Positions 29,024 to 38,283 of a stretch of DNA of 64,000 nt are shown here, piece after piece (positions within the stretch are counted from its first letter, which is position 1; each line of letters starts with the position of its first letter). The notes under the pieces are model-generated. The model was not told the origin of the DNA and made no database searches. It saw only the letters and a list, made by a program, of their open reading frames with translations. The position numbers and the translations under genes were made by a program. This DNA is from an uncultured Lachnospiraceae bacterium (lineage in GTDB: Bacteria; Bacillota; Clostridia; Lachnospirales; Lachnospiraceae). The stretch lies in the NCBI GenBank assembly GCA_964586425.1, contig CAZPHI010000004.1, positions 6,956 to 70,955 on the forward strand, given 5' to 3'.

Positions 29024-29704
29024 ATGAGTAATAGCAATATTAATATAAATAACAAAATTTTGATTGTTGAAGATGAAAAACCTATCTCGGATTTGATTGT
29101 AATGAATCTGAAAGTAGCAGGATATGACACAATTACGGCATATGATGGTGAAGAAGCAAAGAATATACTTCTAGATGAGCCTATGATAGATTTGGCATTA
29201 TTTGATGTGATGCTTCCCAAAATAGATGGCTTTGAATTATTGGAATATGCTGTAAAGAGGGAGATACCAGTAATATTCCTTACTGCGAAGAATGATATTA
29301 ATTCGAAGATAACAGGGCTTAAGGGTGGTGCTGAGGATTACATTGTAAAACCATTTGAACCATTAGAGCTTCTAGTTAGAATTGAAAAGATACTTGATAG
29401 ACAGGGAAAGCTTAGTACACAGCTTAACTTCAAAGATATAACGGTTAACACAAAGGACAGGATTGTATGTAAGAAAGGACAGCAGGTTAATCTAAAACCA
29501 CTTGAATTTGATATTCTTGTAATGCTTATAAGGAATAAAAATAGAACAGTAACCAGAGAGAAGCTTCTGTCGGAATTATGGGGAACGGATTATATTGGAG
29601 AAACCAGAACCCTGGATGTGCATATGGCACAGGTTAGAAAAAAATTAGGACTTCATGATAATATAGTTACAGTCCATAAAACAGGTTACCGATTGGAAGA
29701 GTAA
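29024..29704 (+). CDS. OmpR-family response regulator
   Basis: Receiver domain (ILIVEDE...DVMLP...LTAK) plus a winged-helix output (LEFDILVMLIRNKNRTVTREKLL...VHMAQVRKKL). Confidence 0.93.
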   Translation: MSNSNININNKILIVEDEKPISDLIVMNLKVAGYDTITAYDGEEAKNILLDEPMIDLALFDVMLPKIDGFELLEYAVKREIPVIFLTAKNDINSKITGLKGGAEDYIVKPFEPLELLVRIEKILDRQGKLSTQLNFKDITVNTKDRIVCKKGQQVNLKPLEFDILVMLIRNKNRTVTREKLLSELWGTDYIGETRTLDVHMAQVRKKLGLHDNIVTVHKTGYRLEE

Positions 29705-29739
29705 CTAATTATTTCTACATATGATCAGGGAGGAATACA

Positions 29740-31224
29740 ATGCATTTTTCAATAACGCTAAGAACGAAGATTACTATATTCTTTATCCTGACTCTTGTAG
29801 TAGTAGTATATGCCTTTAATATGCTTGTTATGGAGCAGGCATGGCAGCAGACGATAGATATTAGGAAAAGTGATACTACTGATGCTCTTGCAGATGAACG
29901 TACAAAATTCATATCATTGATGAATGAAAGTGGATATTATTACAGCAGTAAAGATGAGACAATATATTATTATTCCAATGAAAAGACGGCAATAGATGAC
30001 AGTAACAGATATGTTATGGAATTGCTTGCAAAGTATTATTTTCAGCAGAATTCAAAAGCAGGAATGATACTTATGAGAGGCGATGAAACAATATATAATA
30101 ATACATTCGTTAATCCTTATGAAACATTCCAAAAAGTGAATACTTCTGAAGAAAAAAGTATAGAGATTAAGAATGCCGGAGAATATTATATACTTGCAAA
30201 GCAGGATACAGGCTTTGAAAACTATACAATATACTACGCAAACGAAAGTACAAGCCTATATGATAATATGAATAATCAGGAACGCAGGGCATATCTTATA
30301 CTTATTTTTAGTATAGGACTTGGAGTTATAGGAATTATATTCTTTATGAGGCAGTCCTTTGCGCCATTGGATGAGTTAAAGAAGAACGCTAAAAAGATTG
30401 AAAATGGTGATTTTGACTGCAGATGTGAGATTAAAAGATATGATGAGGTCGGAATTGTTGCCAATTCATTTAACGAGATGACCGATGCGATTCATCTATA
30501 TATAGACAAGCTCAATTCCGCTCTGGAACAGCAGAAGCTATTTATCGCAGGTGCAACTCATGAGTTCAAAACACCACTTACATCACTGATTGGATATTCG
30601 GATACATTAATTAATACAAAGCTTGATGAAGAATCAAGAGATATTGCACTTAACTATATTAACAAAGAATGTAAGAGACTTGAAAAACTGATTCAGAAGC
30701 TAATGACTGTGCTTACAATTAGTGGTAATGAACAGATAGATAAGGAACCAGTATACATAGAAGATTTGTTTAAAAACCTGCAGGAGATATTAAAAGAAAA
30801 CAGCAGAATCCGTCAGGTTAACACAGCATTTGTCAATAATAATGCAGGATATATAGAAGGCGACAAGGATTTGCTTATAAGTGTTATGGTTAATCTGATT
30901 GACAATGCAATGAAGGCATCATTGCCTGGAAATGTTGTTAACATTGAGGCGGGAAGATGTACAGATAAGAATGAGGCTGTGTATATAAAAGTAATTGATC
31001 ATGGCGTAGGTATTCCTAAAGAAAGCATAGAACATATAACTAATCCATTCTATATGGTTGATAAATCAAGGAGTAAGAAGCTTGGTGGAACAGGACTTGG
31101 ATTGACACTTGTATCTGAAATTGTAAAGGTTCATGGAGCGGTTATGAATATAGAAAGTGAATCTGGAAAAGGTACATGTATTACGATTATATTCGCTGGG
31201 GAGGAATCACATGATAAGATATAG
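29740..31224 (+). CDS. Sensor histidine kinase (TM, extracytoplasmic domain, TM, HAMP, HisKA, HATPase)
   Basis: H-box ATHEFKTPLTSL, N-box NLIDNAMKA, G-boxes DHGVGI and GGTGLGL. Confidence 0.92.
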   Translation: MHFSITLRTKITIFFILTLVVVVYAFNMLVMEQAWQQTIDIRKSDTTDALADERTKFISLMNESGYYYSSKDETIYYYSNEKTAIDDSNRYVMELLAKYYFQQNSKAGMILMRGDETIYNNTFVNPYETFQKVNTSEEKSIEIKNAGEYYILAKQDTGFENYTIYYANESTSLYDNMNNQERRAYLILIFSIGLGVIGIIFFMRQSFAPLDELKKNAKKIENGDFDCRCEIKRYDEVGIVANSFNEMTDAIHLYIDKLNSALEQQKLFIAGATHEFKTPLTSLIGYSDTLINTKLDEESRDIALNYINKECKRLEKLIQKLMTVLTISGNEQIDKEPVYIEDLFKNLQEILKENSRIRQVNTAFVNNNAGYIEGDKDLLISVMVNLIDNAMKASLPGNVVNIEAGRCTDKNEAVYIKVIDHGVGIPKESIEHITNPFYMVDKSRSKKLGGTGLGLTLVSEIVKVHGAVMNIESESGKGTCITIIFAGEESHDKI

Positions 31225-32557
31225 AAAAATCAGAATGATAACTATGCTTTGTCTCCTTATAATGGTTATGGCCGTATTAGGTGGATGTGGTAACAATGTA
31301 TATGATGCAGTAAGCTACAATAATGAGAATGGCGCTGAGAATGTAGGCGCTAAGTTAAAACAGGCAGGTGGCGGTGTACATATAACGTCTGTTGATAAGG
31401 TAATTGATATGGAGATACCAGAATTTTACAGGACCTCAATTGCCAATAATGACAACACGGTTAATTTATTCTCATCTACCTACATCTTCAAACCGAATAC
31501 AAATAAAGTAAGTTCATATAGCATGGCGGCGAGAAATATATCAACAGAAGAGATAGAAAACTGGAAGAGCATGTATATGGCGGATGTCGATATTGAATTG
31601 ACTGATGCAACAGATGCGGATGACAGCCTAAGGGATATAGCATACTATAATGAAGTTAATGATGAATATGGTTTGGTTGGAGTTACAAGGTGTTTAGAGA
31701 TTAATAATCCTGAAGATGGATGCAATTCGTATATTAGATATACAGCATTTCCAGGGAATATCAGGTTAAGTCAGGAAGATTATGATATAGTTCCGGATGG
31801 TGTGATGAACATTAAGTACGAGAGTGGCGATACTTCAGATTATGTGTTATCAAATCTAGCAACAGAAAAGATTGAGTTGACACAGTATGCTGCAAAGCTG
31901 CAGGCAATGGATGTGGCTAAGCAGTTGGTAGGAGATGATTTTTCGCTTAGTAATCAAACGAGTGCATCTATCTATCTTCCGTCATCGCAGATTGTTGATG
32001 ATGCGGGCAATGCTGTGTATCAGGATTACAGGTGGGTACGTGGTTATGACTTCTATTTTGGAAGATACATGAATGGTTTGGGATATAACTATGCACGTGG
32101 CAACGATTATTCTGAAAACGAAGATGGATATAGTGATAACTGGCATGAGGAATATTTTCATATATTTATTTCAGAAGATAATATAAGTATTGTAGAGTAT
32201 ATGAATGCGGGCGAGATAACAGAATTAATTACTAATCAGACTAAGATGCTGAAGTTTGGGCAGATTAAGAATGTATATGAGCAGATGGTAATTACAACGC
32301 ATGCTAATCTTATACGTAGACAGAGCATTAATAGTGAGGCACCTGTGAAGGGACAGCTTTGTCAAATTAATGTGGAACAGGTAAAGCTCGGATATATGAT
32401 GGTTGTTGATACTAATGATACAAAGAAGGCATATCTTTTGCCAGTGTGGGATTTTTATAAAAGGTATGATGTGACAGATGAAGACAGGTATATTCTGTCG
32501 TCGCTTACAATTAACGCGGTGGATGGCAGTATAATTGATAGAAATAGAGGCTTCTAG
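31211..32557 (+). CDS. Lipoprotein of unknown function, translationally coupled to the kinase gene
   Basis: Start ATG at 31211 after GGGGAGGAA overlaps the kinase 3' end (stop at 31222-31224). Signal peptide with lipobox VLGGCGNN. Confidence 0.7.
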   Translation: MIRYRKIRMITMLCLLIMVMAVLGGCGNNVYDAVSYNNENGAENVGAKLKQAGGGVHITSVDKVIDMEIPEFYRTSIANNDNTVNLFSSTYIFKPNTNKVSSYSMAARNISTEEIENWKSMYMADVDIELTDATDADDSLRDIAYYNEVNDEYGLVGVTRCLEINNPEDGCNSYIRYTAFPGNIRLSQEDYDIVPDGVMNIKYESGDTSDYVLSNLATEKIELTQYAAKLQAMDVAKQLVGDDFSLSNQTSASIYLPSSQIVDDAGNAVYQDYRWVRGYDFYFGRYMNGLGYNYARGNDYSENEDGYSDNWHEEYFHIFISEDNISIVEYMNAGEITELITNQTKMLKFGQIKNVYEQMVITTHANLIRRQSINSEAPVKGQLCQINVEQVKLGYMMVVDTNDTKKAYLLPVWDFYKRYDVTDEDRYILSSLTINAVDGSIIDRNRGF

Positions 32558-32618: not shown

Positions 32619-33434
32619 ATGCAGAATGATTTTTTTGATATTGAGAGTAGATTAAAAGATGGGTGTACATCAATTGAAAAGTATCAATTTTCCGGAGACG
32701 AAAGCATTAGATATATTAGTATCCCGGAAAGGATTACCGAAATTGGTGCACACGCATTTTTTGACTGCGCTAATTTGTATAGAATTGATATGTATGATCG
32801 AATAACAGATATTAATGATGGAGCTTTTAAAAACTGTGATAAATTAAGTGAGATTAATATTACCAGAGTTCCAGGCGGAAGTTTGGCTTGTTTGAAGGAT
32901 ATGTTATATGAGTGTAATCAGGAACTGAAGATAACAATACATTATGAAGATGGAGATGCACTGCTTTTATTTCCATATTATTTGCATGACTTTGATGAGA
33001 ATACACCGGCTAGAATTGTTACGCAGGTAACAGTTGGATCGGGAATGCATTATCGTGAGTGTGTGAGCCGCAAGGAAATTAATTACTTTGAGTATGATAC
33101 AGCATTTAACATTGAAAAAAGTATTGATGTATGCGAATCAGCGTATAAGATTGCGCTGTATAGAATTAATTATCCATACAAGCTGAGTATGGGGCTCAAG
33201 GTTAAGTATATTGAATATCTTGAAGCAAATAGGCTGGAAATAGGCAGACAGATTATTGATAATGTGGATATGGACAAGTTGGAACTTTTGCTTAATTGCC
33301 CAATATGGAATAGAGAATCAATGGCAGAATTAATTGAGATGGCAAGAACTAAAGGACGTATGGAATGTGTCAATGTTCTTATGAGATGTCAAAAGGAAAA
33401 GTTTGGAGCAGTAAAGAAGGTATTTGATTTTTAG
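32619..33434 (+). CDS. Cytoplasmic leucine-rich-repeat (BspA-type LRR) protein
   Basis: ISIPERITEIGAHAFFDCANLYRIDMYDRITDINDGAFKNCDKLSEINI are BspA-like repeats. No signal peptide. Confidence 0.75.
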   Translation: MQNDFFDIESRLKDGCTSIEKYQFSGDESIRYISIPERITEIGAHAFFDCANLYRIDMYDRITDINDGAFKNCDKLSEINITRVPGGSLACLKDMLYECNQELKITIHYEDGDALLLFPYYLHDFDENTPARIVTQVTVGSGMHYRECVSRKEINYFEYDTAFNIEKSIDVCESAYKIALYRINYPYKLSMGLKVKYIEYLEANRLEIGRQIIDNVDMDKLELLLNCPIWNRESMAELIEMARTKGRMECVNVLMRCQKEKFGAVKKVFDF

Positions 33435-33457
33435 TGTTAATGAAAGCGAGAAAGTGA

Positions 33458-34831
33458 ATGGAAGATAGAGGCGTTAATGCGAATGATAATACGCATGATA
33501 CTGCGCGGGCGAATGAGTCGTTGTGTATTGAAGTATTAAATTCAGTCAGAGATGAGCTGTATATTGCTATGCGTTATATGTATGTACCATTAAATAGTGT
33601 GAATTATGTAATGGACAGAAGAAGCACATATATGGGATGTGATGGCAGCTCTATATATTATAATCCTACGATAATGCTTCAACAGTACAAATTTAATCCT
33701 AATAATGTATGTCGAGCATATCTGCATATGATTCTTCATTGTATGTTTCGACATCCGTTTGATGAAGTTGAAAGAAATGAGGAGTTATGGAGTATCGCAT
33801 GTGATACTGCGGTGGAATATATAATAGATGAGCTTCCGCATCAGTGCATACGAAAGCTTATGAGCGATTACAGAGAGCTGACTTATGAAAGGCTGAAATC
33901 ATTAATGCCGGTAGTAAGTGCGCAAAATATATATAATTATCTGACAACACTGGATCAGTTGGCTGTATATAAGATGGGGGAAGAGTTTCTTGTTGATGAC
34001 CATCAGTTCTGGAAGAGTAAGAAGGAAGAAAAGGAACAGCAGAAACAAAATCAACAGAATGATAATCAGAATGATGACAGGGATTCGGAACAAAAACAAC
34101 AGCAGAAGAAACGTTGGAAATCGATAAGCTCAAAGGTGGAGACAGCGCTTGGAACATATGAGCGTAATATTGGTGATGAAAAAATGAGTATTATAGAGCT
34201 ATTGGCATCGGCTAATGAGAATCGTCCAACGTATAGAGATTTTCTTAGGAAATTCGCAGTTATTAGAGAGATAATGGATGTAGATATGGATGCATTTGAT
34301 TATGGTTTCTACAATTATGGAATGCAGATGTATGGAAATATGCCTCTTATTGAGGAACTTGAGTATAAGGATGAGGCAAGAATTGAAGATTTTGTAATTG
34401 TGCTCGATACATCAGGTTCATGTTCGGGTGAATTAATTCAAAGATTTGTGGATGAAACATATCAGATTCTGTCCGAAACGGAAAGCTTTTTTGATAAAAT
34501 TAATCTGCATATAATTCAATGTGATAATGAGGTACAGGAGGATATCTGTATACACTCAAGAGAAGAACTTGAACAGTATAAGGATAATTTTGAGGTAAAG
34601 GGTTATGGTGGTACTGATTTCAGACCGGCATTCGAGTATGTGAATGAGCTTATCAGAGAAAAGAAATTCAAACGCTTGAATGGTCTGCTTTATTTTACGG
34701 ATGGACACGGAGTATATCCTGGTACTCAGCCTGGATACAAAACAGCATTTATCTTTGTAAGAACAATGGGACAGGTTATGGATGTGCCAGCATGGGCGAT
34801 GAAGCTTGAATTAGATGATACACCACTATAA
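33458..34831 (+). CDS. DUF2201-like protein: N-terminal metallopeptidase-like domain (HxxxH, no Glu), Q/N/K-rich linker, C-terminal VWA domain
   Basis: HMILH at 33725-33739. MIDAS DTSGS at 34406-34420, with downstream GGTDF and FTDGHG. Confidence 0.8.
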   Translation: MEDRGVNANDNTHDTARANESLCIEVLNSVRDELYIAMRYMYVPLNSVNYVMDRRSTYMGCDGSSIYYNPTIMLQQYKFNPNNVCRAYLHMILHCMFRHPFDEVERNEELWSIACDTAVEYIIDELPHQCIRKLMSDYRELTYERLKSLMPVVSAQNIYNYLTTLDQLAVYKMGEEFLVDDHQFWKSKKEEKEQQKQNQQNDNQNDDRDSEQKQQQKKRWKSISSKVETALGTYERNIGDEKMSIIELLASANENRPTYRDFLRKFAVIREIMDVDMDAFDYGFYNYGMQMYGNMPLIEELEYKDEARIEDFVIVLDTSGSCSGELIQRFVDETYQILSETESFFDKINLHIIQCDNEVQEDICIHSREELEQYKDNFEVKGYGGTDFRPAFEYVNELIREKKFKRLNGLLYFTDGHGVYPGTQPGYKTAFIFVRTMGQVMDVPAWAMKLELDDTPL

Positions 34832-34864
34832 TAGTAATATAATCTTAGAATATTGGAGAAAACT

Positions 34865-36394
34865 ATGGACATTAAAAGAGCAAAACAGGAAATTATAGAT
34901 ACGGTACAGGCATACTTAAGAAAGGATGCAAGAGGACAGTATGTAATACCGTCATATCGTCAGCGTCCGGTTATGCTGATGGGTGCACCTGGTATTGGTA
35001 AGACTGCAATTATGGAGCAGGTGGCAAGAGACTGCAATATTGGTCTAGTGTCATATACTATGACTCATCATACAAGACAAAGTGCGTTGGGATTGCCATA
35101 CATTGACAAGAAGACTTACCAGGGAAAAGAGTATTCGCAGACGTCATATACGATGAGTGAAATCATTGCTTCTGTTTATGAAAAGATAGAGGCGACGGGT
35201 TGTCCGAATGGCATCCTTTTTATTGATGAGATTAACTGTGTATCAGAGACACTGGCACCAGTTATGCTTCAGTTTTTACAGTGCAAGACTTTCGGTAATG
35301 CTAAAGTGCCGGAAGGCTGGGTAATTGTCGCAGCGGGTAACCCACCAGAATATAATAGAAGTGTAAGAGAATTCGATGTGGTAACGCTTGACCGTGTAAA
35401 GATGATTCATATAGAACCTGATTATAATGCGTGGAAACAATATGCATATGAGAATAATATACATGGTGCAATTATGGCGTATCTTGAAGCAAAGCAAGAG
35501 AATTTCTATTCAATAAAGAATACTGTTGATGGAAAGCAGTTCGTAACAGCAAGAGGATGGGAAGATTTGTCTAATATTATGTTGGTTTATGAGGAGATGA
35601 AGATTAGCATTGATGCTCAGTTGATAGAGCAATATGTGCAAGATCCTGCAATTGCAGTTGATTTTGCGAATTTCCTTGAATTATATTATAAGTATGAGAA
35701 GGCTTATAATATTGATGACATAATTAACGGAAATTATGCGGATGGACTTGTGAAAAAGATTAAAGAAGGTGCATTTGATGAGAAAATAAGTGTTGTTGGT
35801 ATGATTATCAGCAGGCTGAATAAGATATGCATGGAAGAGTATCTGTTTGATCAGATTACGACTAAGGTTTATGAGGTATTAAAGTATTACAATTCAAAGA
35901 TTATGCAGGATGTTGATCTTCATGCTCTTGACTGCTTAAAAGAGATTGCATCTGATAGAAGATTACGATACAATAAGTCAAAGGAAAATGGAATGCTTGG
36001 TGGAATTAAGGAGCTCACAGAATTCGATGTACTTTCATATATTGATAGTTATGTTGCAGTACTTTCACAGGCTATGCTGGAGAATGCGCAAGGCGAAGCT
36101 GTTACGGCTGCTGAAGCATTTGAAATAGTGAGAAATGAGTTTGTTAAGTTATCACAGCAGCGTGAAGATAAGATTGAGCAGGCATCAACTTCATTAAATA
36201 ATGCATTCGATTTTTGTGACAAAGCATTCGGACAAACGCCTCAGATGGTTTTGTTTGTAACTGAACTTGCAGCAGGATTCTATACACTTAAGTTTATTCA
36301 GGATAATGGATGTGAGCGTTATTACAGTTATAATCAGGATTTTAGCGGAGATGACAGAAGAAAGAAATTAATGGAACAGATTACAATAAATTAA
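34865..36394 (+). CDS. MoxR/AAA_5-type AAA+ ATPase with a ~250-aa C-terminal extension
   Basis: Walker A GAPGIGKT (34982-35005), Walker B LFIDEIN, AAGNPPEYNR...LDRV. Start set at the ATG at 34865 (GGAG 7 nt upstream); the longest ORF begins at the TTG at 34853. Confidence 0.85.
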   Translation: MDIKRAKQEIIDTVQAYLRKDARGQYVIPSYRQRPVMLMGAPGIGKTAIMEQVARDCNIGLVSYTMTHHTRQSALGLPYIDKKTYQGKEYSQTSYTMSEIIASVYEKIEATGCPNGILFIDEINCVSETLAPVMLQFLQCKTFGNAKVPEGWVIVAAGNPPEYNRSVREFDVVTLDRVKMIHIEPDYNAWKQYAYENNIHGAIMAYLEAKQENFYSIKNTVDGKQFVTARGWEDLSNIMLVYEEMKISIDAQLIEQYVQDPAIAVDFANFLELYYKYEKAYNIDDIINGNYADGLVKKIKEGAFDEKISVVGMIISRLNKICMEEYLFDQITTKVYEVLKYYNSKIMQDVDLHALDCLKEIASDRRLRYNKSKENGMLGGIKELTEFDVLSYIDSYVAVLSQAMLENAQGEAVTAAEAFEIVRNEFVKLSQQREDKIEQASTSLNNAFDFCDKAFGQTPQMVLFVTELAAGFYTLKFIQDNGCERYYSYNQDFSGDDRRKKLMEQITIN

Positions 36395-37398: not shown

Positions 37399-38283
37399 TT
37401 GCTTGATTTTAGTCGATTAGTTTCATATCTCTATATATATGAACAGGATAATAAGGGAAAATGCGTTGGCCACGCAAAGGTTATGGTGCCGGTCACGGGA
37501 GGTAAAGCGGAAATAAGAGCAGAAATAAAAGGGGTATACGAAAATGTACCTGTTGATTATAGTGCATATGCCTTGAGTCATTATGCTAAAGGTGCAGATA
37601 CCGAAAGCAAAGAATTATACCGCTATCCGTTAGGAGAAGTTACAATTGCAGATGGTGTAGGCAAATTCTATGCACAATCAGATAAAGTTAATGAATTAGA
37701 TATCGAAAAAATAAGGGGATTATTATTCGTACATCCTGATAAAAGTAATTATATTGCAACTTTATATTATGATGAAGTAATTAAGGAAGAATATATAAAG
37801 GATATCAATGAGGTAGATGAATTAAAGAATGTAAGTCAAGAAGAATTCGTAGAAGAGTTGCAAAAAAATGAGCAATTAGAAGAGCAATTAGAAGAGCAAT
37901 TAGAAGAGCAATTAGAAGAGCTGATAGAAGATAAGCCACGGGAAGAGGAATTGACAGAAGAGTCGCCAGAAGAATCACCGGAAGAGGAATTACCGGAAGA
38001 ACAGCTAGTTAGTGCAAATTCAATCAATGTTACGACATGCGAAAAATATAGTGATTGGCACAACATTTTTGATAAATGTATTAAAATGCCAATTTTTGAA
38101 GATGATAATTTTTACGATTGTGTAGAGCTTGATCTAGAACAGTTAAGGTCAATTCCGTTATCCGACATAGGAATAACAAATAATAGTTTTTTGGTGCATG
38201 GATTCAATAATTTTAAAAGAGGACATAGAGATGATTGCCGTAATCCTTACTTTGGTTATTGGTATGTGGAGATGTATATATAG
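37399..38283 (+). CDS. Hypothetical protein with an internal acidic EEQL/EE(S/L)P repeat region
   Basis: TTG start 5 nt after GGAGGG. 294 aa. The 3' end overlaps the convergent GNAT gene by 28 nt. Confidence 0.5.
   Translation: MLDFSRLVSYLYIYEQDNKGKCVGHAKVMVPVTGGKAEIRAEIKGVYENVPVDYSAYALSHYAKGADTESKELYRYPLGEVTIADGVGKFYAQSDKVNELDIEKIRGLLFVHPDKSNYIATLYYDEVIKEEYIKDINEVDELKNVSQEEFVEELQKNEQLEEQLEEQLEEQLEELIEDKPREEELTEESPEESPEEELPEEQLVSANSINVTTCEKYSDWHNIFDKCIKMPIFEDDNFYDCVELDLEQLRSIPLSDIGITNNSFLVHGFNNFKRGHRDDCRNPYFGYWYVEMYI
37870..37920 (+). repeat. Tandem 12-bp coding repeat (GAGCAATTAGAA x4.25) encoding (EQLE)n
   Basis: Four perfect consecutive 12-nt units can be read directly at 37870-37917, plus a partial unit. 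Confidence 0.9.

Follow-up and report, generated by a model that had tools for sequence, protein, structure and literature searches.

The window analyzed here is a 64,000-nucleotide (nt) stretch of DNA from an uncultured Lachnospiraceae bacterium (GenBank assembly GCA_964586425.1, contig CAZPHI010000004.1), and our subject is a triad of consecutive genes in it that encode a leucine-rich repeat (LRR) protein, a protein combining a zincin-like domain with one of the von Willebrand factor A (VWA) type, and a MoxR-like AAA+ ATPase. Because this arrangement recurs in hundreds of genomes, it is far beyond chance, and the LRR protein is an obligate, co-evolving, and faster-evolving partner of the other two proteins. 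By analogy with characterized MoxR/VWA couples, we consider it somewhat probable that the three proteins form a dedicated, soluble, cytoplasmic three-subunit complex for ATP-driven remodeling. What is new here is the conserved LRR-containing MoxR/VWA triad, whereas MoxR/VWA chaperone-type systems and a phage pair with a metallopeptidase-vWA protein were already known. An earlier reading of the same DNA, made from the letters alone (the sequence-only reading), had regarded the combination as functionally uncharacterized, in agreement with our literature search, in which no functional study of an LRR, VWA, and MoxR triad was found.

Linkage and inheritance of the triad

The first three look-ups, in a JGI metagenome, Mediterraneibacter NSJ-55, and Anaeromicropila populeti, returned LRR_5, DUF2201 (the VWA protein), and AAA genes in the same order within entirely different flanks, and the LRR proteins of these loci aligned end to end. 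The wider survey was anchored on the VWA gene and used one genome per species; at least 592 relatives were obtained, and 80 loci were scored. The strict adjacent order LRR, VWA, AAA was present in 66 of the 80. In four more the LRR gene was located 1.5 to 2.4 kb away or had moved downstream of the ATPase gene, in two the ATPase gene was displaced by an insertion, and three could not be scored as a full triad, as the contig was too short or no ATPase open reading frame (ORF) was found; the remaining five are taken up below with the points that weigh against our interpretation. The reciprocal survey was a metagenome scan with at least 589 matches, for which a 15-sequence subset of LRR proteins, biased toward members bearing the ENTPARI motif (Table 1), served as the query. 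Here, the VWA gene was positioned immediately downstream of the LRR gene in 71 of 75 assessable loci. One locus is ordered VWA, AAA, LRR, showing that the linkage survives rearrangement. The sequence-only reading had proposed a conserved functional unit that includes the LRR gene and had named neighborhood analysis as the way to examine it; linkage seen from both sides bears the proposal out, and the lack of linkage that would have spoken against it was not what the surveys found. Its assignment of a MoxR-like AAA+/VWA couple is likewise upheld, with AAA_5 scoring above the cut-off and the VWA and AAA genes adjoining in 74 of the 80 VWA-anchored loci.

The surveyed loci belong to Lachnospiraceae, Anaerotignaceae, Acutalibacteraceae, and Oscillospiraceae-type Clostridia. 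Triads of the Lachnospiraceae type (42 to 44% VWA identity to the window) were also seen in metagenome-assembled genomes (MAGs) labeled Alistipes onderdonkii, Prevotella sp., and Bacteroides thetaiotaomicron (L032, L041, and L044); these contigs are likely mis-binned or the MAGs mislabeled. In a Schaedlerella MAG, a 3.8-kb insertion with membrane-protein-like ORFs separates the VWA and ATPase genes (L042:8301-12156), and in two genomes without an adjacent LRR gene a small DUF3783 protein is encoded directly upstream of the VWA gene (L055:6504-6953 and L057:6468-6935). One gut lineage (L112, L116, L118, L123, L126, L127, and L136) carries two GH94 genes (cellobiose/cellodextrin phosphorylase type) after the LRR and VWA genes; it accounts for most of the LRR-anchored loci without an adjacent ATPase gene, and its ATPase must be encoded elsewhere in the genome or be lost.

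The pairwise-identity matrices of the three proteins correlate with one another (r = 0.82 to 0.88), with identities within versus between genera of 68 versus 49% for the VWA protein, 72 versus 55% for the ATPase, and 53 versus 32% for the LRR protein. The latter evolves fastest: its median identity to the window copy is 28%, the medians being 28 to 30% for the LRR partner versus 48 to 55% for the other two proteins, and a word-index search recovered 13 relatives of it versus thousands at 40 to 60% identity for the VWA protein and the ATPase. Pairs of loci from the same genus have on average 2.0 flanking families in common, pairs from different genera 0.07. Overall, inheritance in Lachnospirales and related Clostridia looks mostly vertical, as a stable chromosomal gene set and not as a mobile island.

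A fourth conserved gene was not found near the triad, the next commonest flank family being present in 15 of 81 loci. The 146 immediate neighbors are metabolic or housekeeping genes (calcineurin-like phosphoesterase, DegV, LUD, argininosuccinate synthase [ArgG], MatE, HPPK/FolB, NrdD, and others), and PADLOC assigned no defense family to more than three of them. When PADLOC-DB v2 was applied to the triad proteins and two neighbors, it gave only P-loop-level IetA matches with E values above 0.003. No close homologs of the triad were found in the plasmid collection or in bona fide phage genomes; matches labeled "Bacteriophage sp." are unannotated fecal virome fragments of 4 to 15 kb with bacterial-type triad genes. 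Phage or plasmid genes flank the triad neither in the window nor in the surveyed loci. On contigs L172 to L175, which encode an identical ATPase (P0169), the triad and, upstream of it, a GntR gene and an ABC transporter do not vary, whereas the downstream flank carries type I-C CRISPR-Cas, a DUF4143/AAA_14 ATPase gene, MatE, or HipA; in this one species, the triad therefore borders a strain-variable hotspot on its constant side.

The sequence-only reading had further placed the triad downstream of a two-component system plus lipoprotein and raised a transcript running from there through rsmA, but these genes are not conserved neighbors of the triad. The response regulator, histidine kinase, DUF6034, rsmA, and tatD genes of the window recur in 0 to 2 of the roughly 80 loci. 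The two-component system, the DUF6034 lipoprotein, and rsmA were accordingly rejected as components of the system, and the two-component system and the lipoprotein are incidental neighbors of the triad in this genome.

Architecture of the three proteins

The domains that the sequence-only reading had assigned to the three proteins all exceed the curated Pfam thresholds, no NCBIfam family reached its cut-off, and the motifs it had quoted (DTSGS, GGTDF, FTDG, HMILHCMFRH, GAPGIGKT, and ILFIDEIN), together with the linker rich in K, E, Q, and N, were all located. In the first protein, Pfam detects LRR_5 (E = 4.9e-16; 59 bits versus a cut-off of 27.7) at amino acids (aa) 12 to 82 only. Most orthologs have about one repeat more at the N terminus than the window protein; ortholog ORFs comprise 267 to 494 aa, with starts that are uncurated first-start-codon calls. 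The conserved residues C50 and C73 fall within the repeat region, and they are probably repeat-consensus residues and not metal ligands. In a Foldseek search with the predicted structure, the N-terminal LRR part matched the BspA-type structures 4gt6, 4oju, 6mlx, and 4h09, and the rest of the model matched nothing. Model confidence was high for the LRR part and for helical aa 190 to 262.

The C-terminal module of the LRR protein (aa 95 to 271) had no Pfam match even at E ≤ 5. An exhaustive search with this segment yielded 621 representatives (50% clustering level); the 150 that were listed all carry the module at the C terminus, and most of these proteins comprise 270 to 410 aa. This single architecture among the matches listed indicates a dedicated family, and gene fusions (Rosetta-stone evidence) did not occur among the listed representatives. 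In addition to the motifs given in Table 1, YD and RLxYP signatures are kept across the orthologs. The protein shares its repeats with BspA-type LRR_5 surface proteins but differs from them in being cytoplasmic, without secretion signal or anchor. Specifically, 75 of 76 LRR orthologs have neither a hydrophobic N terminus nor a membrane segment, the single ortholog with a hydrophobic segment being an over-extended ORF call; the maximum Kyte-Doolittle hydropathy (19 residues) is 0.54 for the LRR protein of the window, and the family maxima are about 1.6 or below. The lack of a signal peptide noted earlier for the LRR protein was thus corroborated, and no hydrophobic N terminus or membrane segment was found in any of the three families.

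The second protein combines, in N-to-C order, DUF2201_N (PF13203; 33.0 bits versus 23.2) and the VWA-like DUF2201 domain (PF09967; 48.8 versus 26.4), and more than 7,600 clusters of its homologs exist at 90% identity. Its DUF2201_N domain is divergent, scoring 33.0 bits versus 70 to 175 bits for plasmid members. In the alignment of 84 family members, the zincin site retains H90 and H94 in 84 and H99 in 83 sequences, and position 91 is M, S, L, T, or I and in none of the 84 Glu, so that the earlier reading of this site as HxxxH rather than HExxH was correct. DUF2201 proteins of plasmids and phages read HEVLHxxxxH, HEAAH, or HEIEHVWRHH. As the family motif is HExxHxxxxH and the Glu is lost here, the Clostridia clade is predicted to be a pseudo-peptidase, which would retain a potential metal site formed by the three histidines (His3). 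The linker between the two domains comprises 14 to 80 aa, at least 75% of them polar or charged in 84/84 family members. In one locus (L001:5437-6927), it has about 80 residues, mostly (DNK)n, compared to 14 to 40 in most, and looks like a hypervariable low-complexity spacer. [quoted passage not shown] Searching the sequences of solved structures with a profile of this protein gave no match.

For the third protein, Pfam reports AAA (34 bits) and AAA_5 (30.6 bits versus a cut-off of 22), the generic AAA model scoring slightly higher, and its protein clusters at 90% identity number at least 8,000. Its stretch with sensor 1 and the arginine finger resembles the MoxR signature NPxE...LDRF, and distant tblastn matches are annotated as MoxR. 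Following strand 2, an insert taken to be the helix-2 insert contains an invariant T71-P82 segment and two strands (residues 83 to 89 and 92 to 98) modeled at low predicted local distance difference test (pLDDT) values; in a check for the helix-2 insert and the pre-sensor-1 hairpin, the hairpin at aa 83 to 98 and short strands after helix 3 both had pLDDT values below 50. The AlphaFold model of the ATPase has a mean pLDDT of 80.9, and the helices of its C-terminal extension (residues 308 to 352, 358 to 378, 384 to 410, and 419 to 459) are predicted at high pLDDT. This extension, with 195 to 255 aa, is present in 81/81 family members and less conserved than the core (consensus fraction, 0.47 versus 0.79), and Pfam searches at relaxed thresholds gave no match for it. 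The sequence-only reading was right in noting an unknown extension here, but its length is about 215 aa and not about 250. Among solved structures, the ATPase model is most similar to NorQ, including complexes of NorQ with the VWA domain of NorD, and to CbbQ (E of about 3e-4). Among predicted viral structures, it matches phage ATPases described as "dynein-related AAA" or MoxR-like AAA_5 (PBS1, phage G, RaK2, and others) with E values down to 4.6e-10.

The three ORFs lie on the same strand and are separated by gaps of 23 nt (LRR/VWA) and 33 nt (VWA/ATPase, counted to ATG 34865), in accordance with the 23 and approximately 33 nt given earlier. The ATPase start at this ATG is preceded by a GGAGA ribosome-binding site 6 nt upstream and gives a protein of the same length as the 509-aa database entry P0134. 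TTG 34853, the start called by the ORF finder, was rejected as an artefact, its codon overlapping the GGAGA ribosome-binding site; residue numbers of the ATPase nevertheless refer to the 513-aa TTG-start ORF from 34853 and not to the 509-aa form.

Table 1. Genes, domains, and motifs of the triad in the window
Feature	Position	Strand	Basis
Gene 1, soluble LRR_5 protein, 271 aa	32619..33434	+	Pfam LRR_5, fold model, orthologs beside VWA/AAA genes in unrelated genomes
LRR_5 repeats, aa 12-82	32652..32864	+	Pfam, alignment, model
Non-LRR C-terminal module, aa 95-271: conserved core, then helical end	32901..33431	+	No Pfam model
ENTPARI motif, first position acidic in 74/76 orthologs	32997..33017	+	Alignment
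GSGxxYRxC motif, G142 in 76/76, R146 in 74/76	33036..33062	+	Alignment
Basic/aromatic C-terminal tail KKxFxF/L, K/R in 69/76, F/Y in 76/76	33414..33431	+	Alignment
Gene 2, DUF2201_N (zincin-like) + linker + DUF2201 VWA, 457 aa	33458..34831	+	Pfam, homolog clusters, PHROG
HMILHCMFRH, HxxxHxxxxH without catalytic Glu	33725..33754	+	Alignment of 84 family members
Low-complexity K/E/Q/N/D linker between conserved tryptophans	34010..34117	+	Alignment
Minimal VWA domain, intact MIDAS	34388..34828	+	Alignment
MIDAS, D317xS319xS321	34406-34420	+	
MIDAS, T386 in GGTDF	34607-34621	+	
MIDAS, D415 in FTDG	34694-34705	+	
Gene 3, MoxR-like AAA+ ATPase, 509 aa from ATG 34865	34865..36394	+	Pfam, ribosome-binding site/start, PHROG, fold matches
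Walker A, GAPGIGKT	34982..35005	+	K50, T51 in 81/81
Insert between strand 2 and helix 2, THHTRQSAxGLPxI + beta-hairpin, taken as helix-2 insert	35063..35152	+	Alignment, model
Walker B, ILFIDEIN	35213..35236	+	D125, E126 in 81/81
Sensor-1/arginine-finger stretch, AGNPPEYNRSVREFDVVTLDRV	35333..35398	+	N163, R181 in 81/81; R172 in 80/81
All-helical C-terminal extension, ~215 aa (aa 296-513)	35738..36391	+	Model, alignment

The surroundings of the triad in the window are ordinary chromosome, with metG, tatD, rsmA, tadA, pfkA, and dnaX-like ORFs and a GC content of about 35% throughout. A scan of the window for promoters and terminators gave counts equal to the shuffled expectation, with no terminator within the operon or ahead of rsmA, which follows the triad after a gap of 28 nt. 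Positions 29024-32557, immediately upstream of the triad, encode a response regulator of the OmpR type, a HAMP/HisKA histidine kinase, and a DUF6034 protein. In the latter, a hydrophobic stretch is followed by a lipobox-like VLGGC, and an internal ATG is a likelier start than the GTG, which overlaps the kinase gene. After rsmA, a 294-aa ORF with an acidic repeat tract (LEEQLEEQLEEQLEE, ESPEESPEEELPEE) is located at 37399-38283; it gave no significant match to Pfam or NCBIfam, and other genomes have nothing corresponding to it near their triads.

Relatives, proposed mechanism, and alternatives

The closest relative of the triad is a pair of genes of phages and plasmids that encode a MoxR ATPase and a metallopeptidase-vWA protein, and the triad is a chromosomal clade related to this pair that is set apart by the missing protease Glu, the helical ATPase extension, and the dedicated LRR subunit. 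The sequence-only reading had not named this relative. By far the strongest family-level matches come from PHROG, with phrog_1297 ("ATPase"; E = 5.3e-44) for the AAA core and phrog_1314 (E = 1.1e-35) for the VWA protein. The AAA cores are homologous (23 to 25% identity), as are the zincin-like + VWA proteins, which share the HxxxHxxxxH histidine spacing and the DxSxS MIDAS, and in both settings the genes of the pair lie side by side or close together. In contrast to the Clostridia triad, which never has it, the phage and plasmid proteins keep the catalytic Glu (HExxH); their ATPases comprise 335 to 356 aa and lack the helical extension; and no LRR partner is found on mobile elements, whereas the Clostridia clade is chromosomal and vertically inherited. 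In the N4-like Pseudomonas phage DL64, gp52 (ATPase, 356 aa) adjoins gp51 (HEIEHVWRHH, DLSAS), and in Thermus phage phiFa an AAA+ gene is located a few genes upstream of the DUF2201 gene. Such phage pairs lie in early/replication modules, beside RNase H or a RecD-like helicase. Proteobacterial and Rhodothermus plasmids also carry DUF2201 genes, with short AAA genes adjoining on the Rhodovastum and Rhodothermus plasmids. Jumbo phages encode a chaperone-cochaperone pair of a MoxR AAA+ protein and a vWA protein that bears a fused metallopeptidase at its N terminus (Iyer et al. 2021, PMC7824862); that the pair serves in the assembly of virions and in proteolytic processing was proposed as a prediction only (PMC7824862).

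Two further observations were made on these relatives. Unrelated proteobacterial plasmids (L086:3460-4359 and L088:3288-4148) have in common a helical protein with a length of about 290 aa, 34% identity between the two copies, and no match in Pfam, encoded immediately upstream of the HExxH-type DUF2201 gene; this protein, shared by the Rhodovastum and Simplicispira plasmids, is unrelated to the LRR partner and may be a different third component of the plasmid clade. DL64 gp51 (L171:5016-6245) and phrog_1314 are annotated as "HNH endonuclease," although the protein consists of a DUF2201 zincin-like and a VWA domain and is encoded beside a MoxR-like ATPase gene; the label looks like a misannotation propagated in N4-like phages.

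The remodeling function that we favor is modeled on NorQ/NorD, in which a hexamer of the MoxR protein holds on to the VWA domain, an acidic residue of the target is bound at the MIDAS site, target specificity comes from the N-domain, and the motor remodels the disordered linker (PMC9976466, PMC13036017). The VWA protein of the triad has the same layout as NorD-type cofactors, i.e., an N-domain, a disordered linker, and a C-terminal VWA domain with intact MIDAS; in view of this paradigm and the shared tripartite layout, a three-subunit remodeling complex with the LRR protein as adaptor or client is proposed. As in NorQ/NorD and CbbQ/CbbO (the CGN subfamily), whose ATPases provide the best solved-structure folds for that of the triad, the genes are co-encoded. 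By analogy with both, the ATPase would form a hexamer gripping the VWA domain, and the MIDAS site would hold an acidic residue of a partner, with the Glu or Asp of ENTPARI in the LRR protein as a candidate ligand. This residue may resemble the acidic motifs of integrin ligands. The histidine site of the dead zincin may bind a metal or a peptide without cutting, ATP hydrolysis would pull on the linker and thereby remodel whatever is bound, and the LRR protein would be either a substrate-recruiting adaptor or the client itself. The known couples differ from the triad in several respects. NorQ and CbbQ show no significant sequence similarity to its ATPase beyond the P-loop and, with about 260 to 270 aa, have no extension, NorD and CbbO lack a zincin-like domain, and their clients (cNOR and Rubisco) are products of nearby genes, whereas the triad has no linked gene for an enzyme client. 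RavA/ViaA is similar in that its MoxR ATPase of about 500 aa has a helical extension after the AAA+ part and its partner of about 480 aa has an N-domain and a C-terminal VWA domain; however, RavA is not among the listed sequence or fold matches, ViaA lacks a zincin-like domain, and there is no LRR partner. The chelatases BchI/BchD/BchH and CobS/CobT/CobN also combine an AAA+ motor, a VWA adaptor whose linker is acidic or disordered, and a third subunit that holds the substrate, a likeness that is architectural only; their third subunit is not homologous to the LRR protein, and the triad has no tetrapyrrole context.

Several results weigh against a remodeling complex of this kind. The fold matches of the ATPase to NorQ and CbbQ are only marginally better than those to Lon, Vps4, and ClpA. 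At the sequence level the MoxR assignment is weak, as a profile of the ATPase matched the Protein Data Bank (PDB) in the P-loop region only, the single sequence gave no match to solved structures, and by sequence none of the solved MoxR structures matches. In the LRR protein, the conserved core, which contains the proposed MIDAS ligand, was modeled with pLDDT values below 50 from a 13-sequence alignment, which makes that role speculation. The LRR gene is out of reach in 5 of the 80 VWA-anchored loci, and the ATPase gene is present in 45 of 55 assessable LRR-anchored loci, a few lineages lacking an adjacent LRR or ATPase gene. Upstream of 74 LRR genes, boxes for known regulators (CIRCE, CtsR, LexA, Zur, Fur/PerR, Rex, CodY, cre, Spo0A, and sporulation sigma promoters) were not enriched over background, and de novo k-mer enrichment returned only generic TATAAT.

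The same five loci are what could be said for the LRR gene being an unrelated neighbor of a VWA/AAA pair that alone is functional, an explanation that is effectively refuted by linkage of about 90% when viewed from the VWA gene and 95% when viewed from the LRR gene, by its persistence across rearranged gene orders and unrelated flanks, and by the occurrence of the LRR C-terminal module in no other architecture among the 150 listed representatives. A nucleoside triphosphate (NTP)-dependent conflict, defense, or signaling system, in which the fast-evolving LRR protein would sense an invader molecule and the MoxR/VWA couple would be the switch, we judge to be distinctly unlikely. The LRR partner does evolve much faster than the other two proteins, relatives are borne by phages and plasmids, one species has its triad next to the variable hotspot with type I-C CRISPR-Cas or HipA, and vWA-MoxR ternary conflict systems have already been proposed, with VMAP, iSTAND, FtsH, or a beta-propeller as third component and variable fused effectors, in actinobacteria, cyanobacteria, planctomycetes, and others with a multicellular habit (Kaur, Burroughs, Iyer, Aravind 2020, PMC7159879). 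The triad resembles these systems in coupling MoxR and vWA to an obligatory third conserved component. However, this component here combines LRR_5 repeats with a module for which Pfam has no model, the architecture is uniform (one architecture of the LRR module among the hits listed) with no fused enzymatic effector domain detected, the taxa are Clostridia, and the bpMoxR Pfam model gives only faint matches on some homologs of the ATPase. With VMAP, iSTAND, FtsH, beta-propeller, fused effectors, and the phyletic range all absent, the membership in this class suggested by the sequence-only reading was not borne out. Its broader idea of a conflict system fared no better, as an effector domain is missing (the sole candidate enzyme, the zincin, lacks the catalytic Glu in 84/84), the triad gave no meaningful PADLOC match, none of the PADLOC defense families matches more than three of the 146 neighbors, which are housekeeping genes, inheritance is vertical with synteny within genera, close homologs are absent from plasmids and bona fide phages, and at the species level the triad lies on the constant side of the hotspot. 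A variant that we regard as speculative and rather improbable is a cytoplasmic sensor-switch of a new kind that Clostridia derived from the phage chaperone-protease pair: the LRR protein would recognize a foreign or stress-related protein, the dead zincin would trap the target peptide uncut, and the motor with its helical extension would give the output; assembly intermediates of an invader could, for instance, be sequestered or taken apart.

A metallochaperone, a version of the remodeling model, is unlikely but deserves some weight; here a metal ion would be held transiently at the His3 site of the zincin and inserted by the AAA+/VWA motor into a client (the LRR partner or a protein recruited by it). 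MoxR/VWA systems typically act in metal insertion (PMC13036017, PMC3893208). Precedents are NorQD with iron, CobST with cobalt, and BchID with magnesium; the arrangement of N-domain, disordered linker, and VWA domain matches NorD, and three invariant histidines survive without the catalytic base. These histidines may, however, be merely structural, a metalloenzyme or metal-transport gene is not conserved near the triad, no Zur, Fur, or PerR box was found upstream, and C50 and C73 of the LRR protein are, going by the repeat consensus, probably repeat residues. Very doubtful, finally, is a domesticated phage or plasmid module with its ancestral role, be it assembly or processing of a large structure or a function linked to DNA replication, in which the LRR protein would replace the substrate of the lost protease. 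Its strongest family matches being phage (phrog_1297, 5e-44; phrog_1314, 1e-35), viral folds surpassing PDB folds by six orders of magnitude in E value, and the location of phage pairs in early/replication modules agree with this origin, as does the virion-assembly role proposed for the phage pair (PMC7824862); against it, the genes flanking the triad, in the window as in the surveyed loci, are not of phage or plasmid type, and the phage role itself is only predicted.

Implications for Clostridia and the DUF2201 family

With at least 592 species-representative matches, the triad is widespread in Blautia, Dorea, Mediterraneibacter, Anaerostipes, Coprococcus, Lacrimispora, and further genera dominant in the human gut. 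As a soluble, tractable three-protein system, it offers access to how MoxR/VWA motors use a dedicated third subunit, and bacterial LRR proteins that, as here, are cytoplasmic and have a defined set of partners are uncommon apart from NLR-like systems. For DUF2201, a family with essentially no literature, the retention of the Glu in phage and plasmid forms and its loss in the chromosomal form constitute a natural experiment that provides a handle on function. Should the sensor-switch apply, it would represent effector-less, decoy-type immunity or quality control in some of the most abundant human gut bacteria. If, in the remodeling complex that we favor, the client is a core cellular complex, the triad would be a new maturation factor for Clostridia physiology.

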